64,000 nt of DNA, from positions 96,001 through 160,000 of the IMG/VR virus record IMGVR_UViG_3300010429_001696. One strand, given 5' to 3'. The DNA comes from a virus (Duplodnaviria > Caudoviricetes). Below, in pieces: positions 1,644-57,537 of this stretch. Below the pieces are notes generated by a model that was not told where the DNA came from, did no database searches, and worked only from the letters and a program-made list of their open reading frames with translations. Made by a program: the position numbers and the translations under genes. Position 1 is the first letter of the stretch. Every line of letters starts with the position of its first letter.

Positions 1644-3617
<1,974 letters not shown>

Positions 3618-4618: not shown

Positions 4619-5362
4619 TTACGAATATGGCTTCAATAAAAAAAATGATTTTTTAATTCTTCTCCAAAAAATTTCTGGATTTATTATTTCGTCTTTTGTT
4701 GGCGGGGGGATTTCGACCAACAATTCTAATCCTCTTTTGACGCCAAAAGAATCAAAAAAATCTTTTAAAAATAACGCCGAATATTCATAACAATAATATT
4801 TATCATCCAATTCTTCAATTGTTTTTGGAGTTTTCATACGTTTATCTATTATAGTTTCTCCCATAGCATTTGAAATATATTCACAAAATCCTTCTTCAAT
4901 AAATCCTTTTCCATAATTCTTTTTAGAAAGATATCCATTATCAATATACTTATTTTTTAACTTCATTTCTGAAATTATCTGGTTGAAATAAATATGAGAT
5001 ATCTCGTGTATAACAACAGATTTGACAAACTTATTAGATGATAATATTTCTCTTTTTTCTGTTTTTGAAAGATTGCCCAACTCACAAGCCAAATATTTTT
5101 CTTCGTTTGATATAGTTATATTATTTGGATATTCAAAAACTCCCATTTCTGACAAAAAATAATCTTCTCTCTGGCTGAGATCATCAACATAAATATAGAT
5201 GTCATAATCTATTGTATCTCTTACAAATGTTTGAAATTCATTTAAAATGGACTCAAATTTTCTGTATGTATAATTTCCTATCATATCTTTTGTCGGCGAT
5301 AATTGACAAAAAGATGAAAGGGTCAAAAATAAAAATAATAAAAATAAAATTCTTTTTAACAT
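4619..5362 (-). CDS. secreted zincin-like metalloprotease candidate
   Basis: Hydrophobic signal-like N-terminus; HEISH followed by EEGFCEY (gluzincin-like third ligand). Confidence 0.55.
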   Translation of the reverse strand: MLKRILFLLFLFLTLSSFCQLSPTKDMIGNYTYRKFESILNEFQTFVRDTIDYDIYIYVDDLSQREDYFLSEMGVFEYPNNITISNEEKYLACELGNLSKTEKREILSSNKFVKSVVIHEISHIYFNQIISEMKLKNKYIDNGYLSKKNYGKGFIEEGFCEYISNAMGETIIDKRMKTPKTIEELDDKYYCYEYSALFLKDFFDSFGVKRGLELLVEIPPPTKDEIINPEIFWRRIKKSFFLLKPYS

Positions 5363-15093: not shown

Positions 15094-16182
15094 ATGAATA
15101 AAAATGAAACTTTTATAAAAAAAGCTGTTGATATACATGGAGATAAATATGATTATAGTGAAGTCAATTATATCAATAATAAATTTGAAGTAAAAATAAT
15201 TTGTAAAATACATGGTGTTTTTAAACAAAAACCAGTAAATCATATCTATTTTAAATGCGGATGCCCTATTTGCGCTGGGAATAAAAAAACAGATGTGAAC
15301 TCTTTCATAAAGAAATGCAATGATTTGTATCAAAACAAATATGATTATTCAAAAATTGATTACAAAAACATGAATACAAAAATAATAATAATATGTCCTA
15401 TTCATGGGGAGTTTAAACAAACTCCAGCTAATCATCTAAAACATGAATGTAGAAAATGTTCATTCGATAAAGAAAGAAAAAATTTTAATGAAATTTTAAT
15501 AAAATTTAAAAAAATTCATGGAGATATTTACGACTATAGTAAATCGCAATATAATGGAATGAATAAAAAAATATCTATTATATGTAAAAAACATGGGGTC
15601 TTTGAACAAACCCCATCAAATCACATGAAGAAAAAAGGATGTCCAAGATGTTCTCCAAATAGTAAAAAAAGTTATGATGAAATATTGAACAAACTCAACA
15701 GATTACACGAAAATAAATATTTTTATGAACATGATATGCCAAAAACATCAAATAAAATAAAGATTATGTGTAAAAAACATGGAGAATTTTATCAAACTTT
15801 AAATAATCATTTGGATGGACATGGGTGCCCATTTTGTAATGATAGTAATCAAGAAAAAAAAATTAATGATTTTTTATTATCAAATAATATTAAAGTTGTT
15901 AGACAAAAAAAATTTATAGATTGCGTTGATAAAAAAAATTTGCCTTTTGATTTTTTCTTACCAGAATTAAACGTGTGTATAGAATACGATGGCGAACATC
16001 ATTTTAAAGAAATAGAAAAATGGGGAGGAAAAAATAGTTTATCTATTATTCAATATCATGATAAAATTAAAAATGAATATTGCTTAAAAAATAAAATAAG
16101 TTTGTATAGAATATCTTATATGGATAATATCATTGATAGATTAAAAGAAATAATGAATGAAAACAATTTAAATAGAATTTAA
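15094..16182 (+). CDS. putative homing endonuclease, DUF723-like repeats plus PD-(D/E)XK
   Basis: Four zinc-ribbon repeats, LPFDFFLP...IEYDGEHH; free-standing directly upstream of the RNR gene. Confidence 0.8.
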   Translation: MNKNETFIKKAVDIHGDKYDYSEVNYINNKFEVKIICKIHGVFKQKPVNHIYFKCGCPICAGNKKTDVNSFIKKCNDLYQNKYDYSKIDYKNMNTKIIIICPIHGEFKQTPANHLKHECRKCSFDKERKNFNEILIKFKKIHGDIYDYSKSQYNGMNKKISIICKKHGVFEQTPSNHMKKKGCPRCSPNSKKSYDEILNKLNRLHENKYFYEHDMPKTSNKIKIMCKKHGEFYQTLNNHLDGHGCPFCNDSNQEKKINDFLLSNNIKVVRQKKFIDCVDKKNLPFDFFLPELNVCIEYDGEHHFKEIEKWGGKNSLSIIQYHDKIKNEYCLKNKISLYRISYMDNIIDRLKEIMNENNLNRI

Positions 16183-55319: not shown

Positions 55320-55548
55320 GATGGTTCATTTTATTTAGCTAAAATAAATATCCTAGATATGAATTTACAAATAAATCGATTCAAATAATGAATATGTTTA
55401 GTGATTGCTTAAAATATTATAATATTGAACATAAAATTAGAACAAGAAAAAATGGTGTTATGGACATATTCATCCAATCAAGAAAAAAGGTAAATTTTTT
55501 ATATTCAATTTTGAATGAAAAATATAAAATGAAAAGATGGAAATTTTG
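55320..55548 (+). pseudogene. LAGLIDADG-like endonuclease remnant
   Basis: DGSFYLA / NKYPRYEFTNKSIQIMNMFSDCL with a frameshift at ~55340, no N-terminal half. Confidence 0.5.
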
Positions 55549-55635
55549 TGCCGAAGACGGGAGTCGAACCCGTATGCTCACCTGAGCACGGCTTTTTAAG
55601 AGCCGCATGTATACCACAAATTCCATCACTTCGGC
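55549..55635 (-). tRNA. tRNA-Leu(TAA)
   Basis: GCCGAAG/CTTCGGC acceptor, CGGCT-CTTAAAA-AGCCG anticodon arm, long variable arm, GGTTCGA, discriminator A. Confidence 0.9.
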
Positions 55636-55909
55636 ATTTAATTTTTTTCAAAGAACTTCTTTTATATAATAGAAAATATTAATAGTTTATATATTTTTGA
55701 AATAACGACATAATTTAAAGACATCTCCTTCTTTAAAATCATATCTTTTTCTTGTATCACAAGCAACATCCCCAACCATACCATAATATCCAAAACATTT
55801 TTCTATTTCATGTTTAGAAAGCGAGCAATTGTCGTTTATGCCGTTCAATCTTTCATCCAATGTGTGTTTTTTATTATCCATTTTTAATTGTTTTATTATT
55901 TTTCATTTG

Positions 55910-55993
55910 TGCCCTTGATAGGATTCGAACCTACATATTCTTGCGAACGCGACATCCTAAGTGTCGTATGTCTCCCAGTTTCATCACAAGGGC
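55910..55993 (-). tRNA. tRNA-Leu(TAG)
   Basis: GCCCTTG/CAAGGGC acceptor, CGACA-CTTAGGA-TGTCG, long variable arm. Confidence 0.9.
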
Positions 55994-56001
55994 GATTTTT
56001 G

Positions 56002-56086
56002 TGCCGAAAAAAGGACTCGAACCTTCATGCCCTTCAAGAGCGCATCATTTTGAGTGATGTTTGTCTACCAATTCCAACATTTCGGC
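56002..56086 (-). tRNA. tRNA-Leu(CAA)
   Basis: GCCGAAA/TTTCGGC acceptor, CATCA-CTCAAAA-TGATG, long variable arm. Confidence 0.9.
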
Positions 56087-56690
56087 TTATTTTTTATTCA
56101 TTTTTAATTTTTTTATAACAGAATAAATAGTATTACTATTTATCTTTAACATTCTTGATATTTCAATAGATTTTAATCCTTTATTATATAAATCCTTTAC
56201 CGCTTCGTAATCAATTCTATATTCCTTATTTATATTTAACTCTTTAATTATTTCTGATATTGTGCTTTTTGAACAATTAAAAAATGTAGATATTTCTTTT
56301 TGATTCATACCATTTTCATACATTTTTTTGACTTCGTTTCTATTAATTTTTTGAGATAATCTTTTTAAATTATTGGATTTCAAAATTATTTCTTCTTTAT
56401 TTTTTTCAAAAAAATCTAAATCGGAATGTTCTTCAGTATGGCAATTGTTACATAATATTATACATTTATCTAGCTCTTCCATTATATAGTCTTTAATTAT
56501 ATCTGTATTTGAATTTCTACATCCACCTATTCCTTTAATTTTATCTCTAATATGATGAAATGATAAAGAATCATTAGATTTATTATAACCACATTTTTCA
56601 CAAGATTGACTATTTTTATATTTTAAAAATAATTTTTTAGATTCTTTATAAATAGTTTCTTCTTTTGAAGAATGAATCTCACTATGGAAT
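56087..56690 (-). pseudogene. N-terminally truncated HNH endonuclease with C-terminal HTH repeats, inside the tRNA cluster
   Basis: Frame open upstream of 56482: CEKCGYNKSNDSLSFHH...ELDKCIILCNNCHTEEH; no ATG before the HNH motif. Confidence 0.65.
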
Positions 56691-56699
56691 GATTCGATG

Positions 56700-56774
56700 T
56701 GTCCTAGGTGGTATTCGAAACCACACCTGTATACCCCCTCAAGATATCGCCTCTACCAATTGGGCTACTAGGAC
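56700..56774 (-). tRNA. tRNA with GAG (Leu) anticodon, short variable loop
   Basis: GTCCTAG/CTAGGAC acceptor, ATATC-TTGAGGG-GGTAT anticodon arm, GTGGT-TTCGAAT-ACCAC T arm; 75 nt. Confidence 0.8.
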
Positions 56775-56855
56775 TTTGCCGAAATAAGATAAGTTTACTA
56801 TCGCAAATTTTCTTTTCTGAGCATTTGATTCATTTCACCATCCGGTATTAAAATA

Positions 56856-56867
56856 TTTCAAAGAACA
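56856..56867 (-). promoter_or_regulatory. boxA-like motif TGTTCTTTGAAA ahead of the tRNAs
   Basis: GTTCTTTGA also at ~55648-55656 before tRNA-Leu(TAA) and at ~52528-52536. Confidence 0.45.
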
Positions 56868-56870
56868 AAT

Positions 56871-56903
56871 AAAAAACCCAGTCTTTTTTGAGACCGGGTT
56901 TTT
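56871..56903 (-). terminator. intrinsic terminator (attenuator) upstream of the tRNA-Leu cluster
   Basis: AAAAACCCGGTCT-CAAAAA-AGACTGGG-TTTTTT. Confidence 0.85.
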
Positions 56904-56925
56904 CGAAAAATATAAAATAAACACG

Positions 56926-57018
56926 TTATTTCATTAAGCATAAAAACCTGGTCCCATAGTTTCCTAACAATAGGCCTAAAACAGACAGGAGAAGGATATT
57001 TACGTTAATGTTTTTCAT
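56926..57018 (-). CDS. leucine-rich leader peptide MKNINVNILLLSVLGLLLGNYGTRFLCLMK (30 aa)
   Basis: 9 Leu; codons 9-18 include CTT CTC CTG TTA CTA TTG TTA; AATATATA box just upstream; contains the antiterminator arm at 56942-56953. Confidence 0.8.
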   Translation of the reverse strand: MKNINVNILLLSVLGLLLGNYGTRFLCLMK

Positions 57019-57537
57019 TGTTTATTTATATATTGTATAATAAATATGGTTTTTTTCCATTTTTAGTTTCAATTATACGACAAAATTATAAAAAAGTTTT
57101 AAATAAAAAAAATATTTTAATCATATTTAGCGATTATTTTATTAAATGATGGCGCCAAATATCCAAATTATTCAACGATTTTTATAAAAAGTGTGTCCTT
57201 ATCATTTTTTATTTTAAATGGTAAAGTTTCATTATTATAATTAAGAAAATTAGATTTTTTTGAAAATCTAAAATTCTGTTTGGTTTTAGAATAATCTCCG
57301 TTTTTTTCAAAAATCGATTTTCCATTTGTGGCAAAATACATCTTTTTATCAAAAAAATCCATGAATTGATAAAAAGTCAATCCTGTACCAATGAAAGGCA
57401 CATCAATTAATTCGTAAATTCTACCATTCGTTACACATCTATAAAATTCTTTCATATCTTTTTTTATTATCTTAACAAAAAATTACAAAAAAGTTTTAAA
57501 TTTTAATCATATTTAGCGATTATATCCATCTTCAAGT

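Follow-up and report, generated by a model that had tools for sequence, protein, structure and literature searches.

Why do phages carry genes for transfer RNAs (tRNAs), and when are these genes used? The roles proposed for phage tRNAs are compensation for codon usage, substitution for host tRNAs that have been degraded and evasion of anticodon nucleases. We addressed this question at a tRNA-Leu locus of an uncultured phage, in a stretch of 64,000 nucleotides (hereafter, the window) that comprises bases 96001-160000 of a 193,754-bp IMG/VR virus record (G+C content of the phage genome, 28.6%; estimated completeness, 92%). The whole locus lies on the minus strand and consists of a promoter-like block, a mini-open reading frame (mini-ORF), an intrinsic terminator, the motif GTTCTTTGAAA and four tRNA-Leu genes. 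The original prediction for this locus was a leucine-sensing leader-peptide attenuator, an interpretation that is now supported by paralogous units in the same genome, by at least 96 viral loci, by covariation and by the geometry of the parts. Judging from the sequence and from folding models, the locus is likely to be a tRNA-Leu operon of the phage that is gated by a ribosome-mediated (leader-peptide) transcription attenuator, and the phage probably makes the four tRNA-Leu only when Leu codons are read slowly. The parts on which this reading depends, in the order of transcription, are the following.

57072-57110, minus strand: promoter-like block, near-identical across the three attenuator units of the genome
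57019-57071, minus strand: A-rich conserved 5' untranslated leader that includes AATATATA (57034-57027) and lacks a Shine-Dalgarno (SD) sequence
56926-57018, minus strand: leader mini-ORF of 30 codons plus TAA (from the ORF call, Leu statistics and in-frame matching in relatives)
56965-56994, minus strand: sensor window, codons 9-18, with seven Leu codons of all six codon types
56942-56953, minus strand: predicted antiterminator 5' strand (segment 2), GACCAGGTTTTT, codons 22-26, pairing 11/12 with 56903-56892
56871-56904, minus strand: intrinsic terminator of 14 bp followed by a T-run (5' arm AAAAACCCGGTC, 56903-56892; 3' arm, 56883-56872)
56856-56866, minus strand: boxA-like motif GTTCTTTGAAA, copy 1, 4 nt past the terminator T-run
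56699-56774, minus strand: tRNA-Leu(GAG), 76 nt, reading CTC and CTT (ARAGORN; Rfam tRNA model, 46.7 bits)
56001-56086, minus strand: tRNA-Leu(CAA), reading TTG (ARAGORN; Rfam tRNA model)
55909-55993, minus strand: tRNA-Leu(TAG), reading CTA and CTG (ARAGORN; Rfam tRNA model)
55548-55635, minus strand: tRNA-Leu(TAA), reading TTA and TTG (ARAGORN; Rfam tRNA model)

Is the leader ORF more than a chance reading frame? The ORF call and the codon positions bear out the predicted 30-codon frame (57018-56926) carrying all six Leu codons: CTT, CTC and CTG are codons 9-11, TTA is codon 14, and CTA, TTG and TTA are codons 16-18, with two more TTA codons at positions 26 and 28, for a total of 9 Leu in 30 codons. 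The presence of all six Leu codons had been considered unexpected for so AT-rich a genome, and it is: among 400,000 samples of random coding windows from the same genome, none contains all six together, a content of 9 or more Leu in 29 codons has P = 2.5e-5, and CTC and CTG each account for less than 5% of the Leu codons in the phage genome. Chance as the origin of these features was rejected because both the Leu content and the use of six codons far exceed it. The four tRNA-Leu genes expected downstream (anticodons GAG, CAA, TAG and TAA) were all called by ARAGORN and recognised by the Rfam tRNA model and, under wobble assignment, each of the four anticodons has at least one cognate codon in the sensor window. 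The lack of an SD sequence in front of the leader is normal here because the phage genome is essentially SD-less, with an SD-like motif in only 5% of the long ORFs and 57-67% A in the sequence 5' of the starts.

How could translation of this ORF affect the terminator? The strong terminator that had been reported is in place as a 14-bp stem with a T-run (56904-56871), and the 11/12 pairing of codons 22-26 with its 5' arm is confirmed (56953-56942 against 56903-56892). When the complement of the 12-nt 5' arm was sought in the 64-kb window with at most one mismatch, three matches were found, compared with 0.18 expected, namely, both terminator arms and GACCAGGTTTTT in the leader ORF. Folded without a ribosome (-48.9 kcal/mol, z = -6.2), the leader forms the terminator and keeps segment 2 sequestered by the ORF sequence 5' of it. 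Folding with ribosome occlusion, which had been suggested as a check, was run in two ways. Equilibrium folding with a 28-nt ribosome mask was dropped, given that pairing of 5' sequences across the ribosome made its terminator probabilities inconsistent; it was replaced with a nascent-transcript model that masks all sequence 5' of the leading edge of the ribosome and has the transcript stop short of the 3' arm. In this model, the antiterminator helix forms with stalls at codons 1-18 and with none beyond. The original caveat that stalls at codons 16-18 might partly cover the antiterminator arm does not hold in the model, where codon 18 is the last stall that leaves the antiterminator free.

The same arrangement recurs within the genome. 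Two further units are located in the other tRNA cluster (12.8-18.3 kb of the genome), and the order of parts is identical in all three: a block comprising the promoter and the 5' untranslated region (5'UTR), the mini-ORF, the antiterminator segment at the end of the ORF, the terminator and the tRNAs. The conserved promoter/5'UTR block, about 115 nt long and beginning near 57110 in the window, is common to all three units, and its full form is found at exactly three sites of the 194-kb genome, always followed by a mini-ORF, a terminator and tRNAs. In the two further units, the segment at the end of the ORF is complementary to the terminator 5' arm at 9/9 and 8/8 positions, and the nascent-transcript model places the boundaries between codons 13/14 and 14/15, just past the respective sensor codons. 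The 16-codon leader of one unit carries ATA, TAT, GAA, GAG, ATA and GAA, and the tRNAs behind it are tRNA-Glu(CTC), tRNA-Glu(TTC) and, with a score of 39.7 bits, one that has UAU in its anticodon loop. The 20-codon leader of the other unit is followed by tRNAs for Tyr(GTA), Ile(GAT), Asp(GTC), Asn(GTT), Cys(GCA), Gln(TTG) and Met(CAT); these tRNAs can read 14 of the 19 codons that follow the start of the leader (P = 2.5e-4), and all seven specificities are represented in it (P = 3e-3). The Ile codon is ATA only ahead of the UAU tRNA and ATT only ahead of the GAU tRNA.

Does the correspondence between leader codons and downstream tRNAs extend to other phages? Viral contigs were searched with a pattern consisting of the terminator tail GGGTTTTTT, a spacer of 0-30 nt and the boxA-like motif, which contains no leader information. 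At least 115 viral contigs match this pattern, and same-strand tRNAs are located downstream in 96 contigs among the matches listed, to which the results on the family given below also refer. Leaders were defined as the longest ATG ORF that ends within 110 nt of the terminator, and codons were assigned to tRNAs under strict wobble rules. The suggestion that the enriched amino acids should match the anticodons in related loci is borne out: for the 59 unique leaders, the match to the tRNA set of the same locus is 0.333, compared with 0.204+-0.010 for permuted sets (0/20000), and for the 32 clusters with less than 40% leader identity it is 0.352, compared with 0.204 permuted. Furthermore, 89% of the downstream anticodons are represented in their own leader, as against 61% after permutation. 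The match is frame-specific (0.33 in frame compared with 0.17 and 0.16 out of frame, p ~1e-8), and the ORF is kept at the same position in the relatives. Counted in codons from segment 2, cognate codons are densest between -12 and -5, where 0.5-0.74 are matched, and the match then falls to 0.38, 0.30 and 0.11 at -4, -3 and -2, respectively; in the window, codon 18, the last sensor Leu, occupies position -5, on the edge of the peak seen across the family. The collapse between -4 and -2 is where the edge of the footprint of a stalled ribosome would be expected to reach segment 2. The longest perfect complement of the terminator 5' arm in the leader of the same locus averages 7.07 nt, compared with 3.15+-0.36 nt in the leaders of other loci; because the arm sequences differ widely among loci, this complementarity is covariation, and the antiterminator pairing on which the original prediction depended is thus kept in the homologues. 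The following loci illustrate the correspondence.

L007, L042, L071 and L114: Gln/Pro/His runs in the leader, with Pro, His and Gln tRNAs behind it
L069: Leu-rich leader with all six Leu codons and seven tRNA-Leu genes behind it, an independent Leu-only cluster
L049: Tyr/Lys in the leader, with Lys and Tyr tRNAs behind it
L043: His/Ser/Lys/Phe/Trp in the leader, with Trp, His, Phe, Ser and Lys tRNAs behind it

The unusually structured leader RNA of the window (z = -6.2, as given above) would also suit a switch that works without translation, in which the leader RNA senses tRNA directly, in a T-box-like manner, or binds a protein. We consider such a switch highly improbable. The leader matches neither the T-box nor any other Rfam family; among the curated leader families, the best score was that of Thr_leader, 20.8 bits against a gathering threshold of 55, with only the terminator covered. 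Moreover, the match between codons and tRNAs is confined to one reading frame and lies at the distance of a ribosome footprint from segment 2, and only translation explains both. A T-box-like switch was rejected on the frame-specific match together with the lack of an Rfam T-box match.

What, then, is the role of the motif that follows the terminator? The motif predicted to be boxA-like is present at 56866-56856 and resembles the boxA consensus. The phage genome contains 8 copies of GTTCTTTGAAA, 7 of them within the two tRNA clusters, and tRNAs begin 9-14 nt past three of the copies in this genome. Among 120 hits of the same pattern in cellular genomes, 18 have the 5' end of 16S ribosomal RNA (rRNA) 50-150 nt (once 341 nt) 3' of the motif and 4 have a tRNA within 400 nt downstream; the hits in 16S leaders span several phyla, Bacteroidales included, and the 11-mer is identical. 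In G001, a 130-kb phage that is a distant relative of the phage analysed here, two TTGTTCTTTGAAAATAT copies (L006 2930-3531) precede a structured RNA of about 150 nt and a transfer-messenger RNA (tmRNA) with the tag GKNQIL, which suggests that the motif marks stable-RNA genes generally. By sequence and position, GTTCTTTGAAA appears to be an rRNA-type boxA placed past a regulated terminator, with putative binding of Nus factors. The original prediction had given tRNA-Leu(TAA) a promoter of its own at about 55660; this position corresponds to the second boxA-like copy, and no recognisable promoter is found there. The motif as a -33 or -7 box of a promoter was ruled out here, given the start of tRNAs 9-14 nt after three copies. 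This second copy and two ORFs are the remaining features of the operon.

56087-56698, minus strand: HNH-type homing-endonuclease-like ORF with helix-turn-helix (HTH) domains, between tRNA genes (Pfam HNH and HTH; start codon uncertain)
55687-55881, minus strand: 64-codon ORF of unknown function within the tRNA operon
55646-55656, minus strand: boxA-like motif, copy 2, 10 nt 5' of tRNA-Leu(TAA)

The ATG-started part of the HNH-like ORF spans 56482-56087, and the HNH half lies upstream of the first ATG, GTG or TTG, which implies that the start is non-canonical or that the gene is decayed. With respect to the tRNA genes, tRNA-Leu(GAG) was not found in the first Rfam pass and was recovered by a narrower search, with the score given above. 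At 76 nt, it is devoid of the long variable arm that is usual for bacterial tRNA-Leu; tRNAs of 73-76 nt with Leu anticodons are also present in other phage loci, including L069 and L017, and other phage loci have 83-84-nt tRNAs with Arg anticodons.

Where would transcription of the operon start? The promoter-like block holds TAATTTTG (57088-57081), which is of the Bacteroidota -7-box type, and TATAAT (57077-57072). The AATATATA box is present at 57034-57027, as noted originally; because the conserved block starts further 5', near 57110, and holds TAATTTTG and TATAAT, the AATATATA box is probably part of the 5'UTR rather than of the promoter. A scan for sigma-70-type promoters produced no more matches than in shuffled sequences and is thus uninformative, and the Bacteroidota-type promoter consensus is not enriched in the 64-kb window (6 found versus 7.4 expected). 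The leaders of the relatives sit 3' of TTTG...TAnnTTTG boxes. Together with TAATTTTG and the SD-less genome, these boxes point to a Bacteroidota-like host, which would account for the missing SD; because the promoter consensus is not enriched, we do not claim a host from it and only infer one.

Several observations weigh against the attenuator. One full TTTG-N-TAATTTTG (TTTG...TAnnTTTG) match, at 56410-56381 on the minus strand, is located 5' of three of the four tRNAs and could be an internal promoter; it lies inside the HNH ORF, about 295 nt 5' of tRNA-Leu(CAA), and chance alone would yield about 7 matches of this kind per window. A gap of 97 nt precedes the first tRNA after the terminator, and two ORFs are encompassed by the operon, which makes internal promoters possible. 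At equilibrium, nearly all occlusion states favour the terminator, so that the decision of the switch would have to be kinetic, as in classical attenuators. Finally, stalls at the TTA codons 26 and 28, beyond the sensor window, would favour termination, and a ribosome on the stop codon would cover merely the 3' edge of segment 2.

The 97-nt gap and the terminator as the equilibrium structure, along with the hydrophobic core of the leader peptide, could also be explained by a self-contained cassette, which would produce a short RNA or a small hydrophobic peptide, with the tRNAs transcribed from downstream promoters and the boxA-like motif serving as part of a promoter or as a processing signal. 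The family makes this explanation improbable. The leaders of the three units and of the relatives share no peptide past the first few residues and instead track the tRNA sets, on which ground a functional small peptide was rejected, and segment 2 covaries with the terminator arm. At many loci, 3-30 nt lie between the end of the motif and the mature tRNA, and the terminator is within 60 nt of the tRNA, a spacing that a promoter with a -33 box would not fit; the motif is also found in the 16S leaders of diverse bacteria. In 62 of the 96 loci, no more than 60 nt separate the T-run from the start of the first tRNA, which leaves little room for a separate promoter and argues for co-transcription in the family.

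If the locus is an attenuator, what does it sense? The original prediction combined ribosome stalling on Leu codons, which is supported by the matching of codons and tRNAs, with starvation, named first, or host anticodon-nuclease attack as the cause. The signal is likely to be a shortage of decodable Leu-tRNA, which might arise from demand, from host tRNA degradation or from nuclease defence, rather than leucine starvation as such: the genes under control are tRNA genes, and each isoacceptor is sampled a single time by the sensor. The same machinery could in principle respond to leucine starvation, in which case the phage would sense the supply of the amino acid and not that of tRNA: classical leu, ilv and thr leaders respond to charged-tRNA levels, which drop on amino-acid starvation, and an uncharged tRNA cannot be separated from a missing one by sequence. 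However, extra tRNA would not relieve amino-acid starvation, the sensor contains one of each codon or isoacceptor instead of repeating a single codon, and across the family, among the matches listed, the leaders name the amino acids of the tRNAs encoded behind them and no others, up to about 12 different ones, which fits the monitoring of each tRNA species and not of one nutrient. Starvation as the signal thus appears rather unlikely.

For the attenuator driven by tRNA shortage, we infer a course of events from the sequence, including the promoter, leader translation and its coupling to transcription, regulated read-through, the function of the boxA-like site, co-transcription and the physiological trigger. 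Transcription would start in the conserved block, near 57075-57110, and enter the 30-codon leader. With fast decoding of Leu codons, the ribosome would have reached or passed codons 22-26 at the time when the polymerase transcribes the terminator; segment 2 would then be occluded, or later sequestered by upstream ORF sequence, the hairpin at 56904-56871 would form and transcription would end. When charged tRNA-Leu is scarce, the ribosome would stall at any of the seven Leu codons among codons 9-18, leaving segment 2 free to pair with the emerging terminator 5' arm and to block the terminator. The polymerase would pass the boxA-like site, which probably recruits NusB/NusE antitermination factors of the host rRNA type for the long untranslated stretch, and would go on through tRNA-Leu GAG, CAA, TAG and TAA. 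The tRNA products would relieve the stall, which would amount to negative-feedback control of the supply for decoding all six Leu codons.

The tRNA cluster that holds the two paralogous units (L003, genome 12500-18500) displays several unusual features, all on the minus strand. tRNAs with Cys(GCA), Asn(GTT), Asp(GTC) and Ile(UAU)-type loops have the class-II shape, with lengths of 80-88 nt and long variable arms (L003 ~1060-1146, 2481-2563, 2570-2657 and 4898-4977); one of them scores best as tRNA-Sec (25.5 bits), and the architecture is unusual for these specificities. A second tRNA-Asp(GTC) contains a 228-nt intron according to ARAGORN (L003 ~2106-2409, genome 14605-14908), where no group I intron was detected by Rfam. 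Another tRNA (43.3 bits; L003 403-474, genome 12902-12973) has an 8-nt anticodon loop and, according to ARAGORN, the four-base anticodon CTTG; two AAA (Lys) codons in the leader of the same operon are not accounted for by any other downstream tRNA. A G+C-richer, apparently structured stretch of about 290 nt (L003 ~2850-3140, genome ~15350-15640), located between a boxA-like motif and tRNA-Tyr, has the T-loop-like GGTTCGATTCC inside and no Rfam match.

With respect to the relatives, exact DNA patterns from tRNA-Leu(GAG) and the terminator identified no close relatives in viral contigs, and the three neighbouring proteins, used as queries against viral contigs, yielded either no relatives or one distant phage without synteny here. 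In the cultured-phage collection, the region has similarity only at the level of tRNA, and a 601-aa protein of the phage has no relative there. The same module is also present, in a G+C-rich context, near position 3020 of a 269-kb contig (L234) that is binned as a Terracidiphilus metagenome-assembled genome and is possibly a mis-binned large phage or a prophage. Its 24-codon leader is rich in Arg, Lys, Ile, Val, Met, Gly and Trp, and the tRNAs behind the leader are Trp, Met, Ile, Lys, three Arg, Val, Ile and Gly.

Leader codons that list the downstream tRNAs imply that the phage measures the decoding of those codons and makes tRNA on demand, which would bear directly on when phage tRNA genes are used. 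With at least 96 viral contigs detected by one strict pattern, the module is common and thus characterises a large group of uncultured phages in general, rather than being peculiar to a single genome. Tentatively, and with more doubt than confidence, we suggest that this widespread phage system monitors each tRNA species codon by codon and induces the matching tRNA block upon depletion in the host, acting both in counter-defence and as a homeostat of codon supply. If this is the case, an anticodon nuclease or another tRNA-targeting defence would be a possible trigger, and the tRNA blocks would be inducible and self-limiting rather than constitutive accessories. The leaders would provide a direct read-out of which tRNAs turn limiting in infection and a compact programmable part, namely, codon-specific sensors of tRNA availability, and classical attenuation would extend to RNA genes and to viruses.

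How does this system compare with those already known? The mechanism would be that of the leu, thr, ilv and pheST attenuators; new would be the target (tRNA genes), the carrier (phages) and the listing of one codon per tRNA followed by boxA. A full-text search of the literature yielded no description of leader-peptide attenuators controlling tRNA genes. As in leuL, thr, ilvGMEDA, trpL and hisL, a short leader ORF contains the regulatory codons, and alternative pairings (1:2, 2:3 and 3:4) end in an intrinsic terminator, with the stall freeing the antiterminator; the family resembles the multivalent thr and ilvGMEDA leaders in that several amino acids are listed. Unlike the leaders of amino-acid operons, the one described here is phage-encoded and would target tRNAs instead of biosynthetic enzymes, so that the product acts directly on the sensor; it also contains one of each synonymous codon or isoacceptor rather than runs, and a boxA-like site follows the terminator. 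In the pheST attenuator of E. coli, with its pheM leader, a component of the translation apparatus is controlled by the level of charged tRNA; there, the target is an aminoacyl-tRNA synthetase in a cellular genome, whereas here it would be the tRNA genes themselves, in a virus. The T-box likewise controls translation-related genes, with read-through of the terminator if a specific tRNA is poorly charged, but it binds the tRNA directly and needs no ribosome; here, the leader contains none of the elements of a T-box, and the frame-specific signal depends on translation. The phage motif is a putative counterpart, recognised by its sequence, of the boxA of rRNA operons, the site of NusB-NusE processive antitermination, and of the boxA of lambda nut. 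In the phage and in its relative, it precedes stable-RNA genes (tRNAs and a tmRNA, respectively); it differs in that it sits past a regulated terminator and is repeated inside tRNA arrays. Finally, the tRNA arrays of T4, T5 and other large phages are interspersed with homing-endonuclease genes and small ORFs, much as the tRNA-Leu operon contains a homing-endonuclease-like gene and a small ORF; to our knowledge, attenuator control is not among the features of those clusters, the literature search likewise yielded none, and such control would set the operon described here apart from them.

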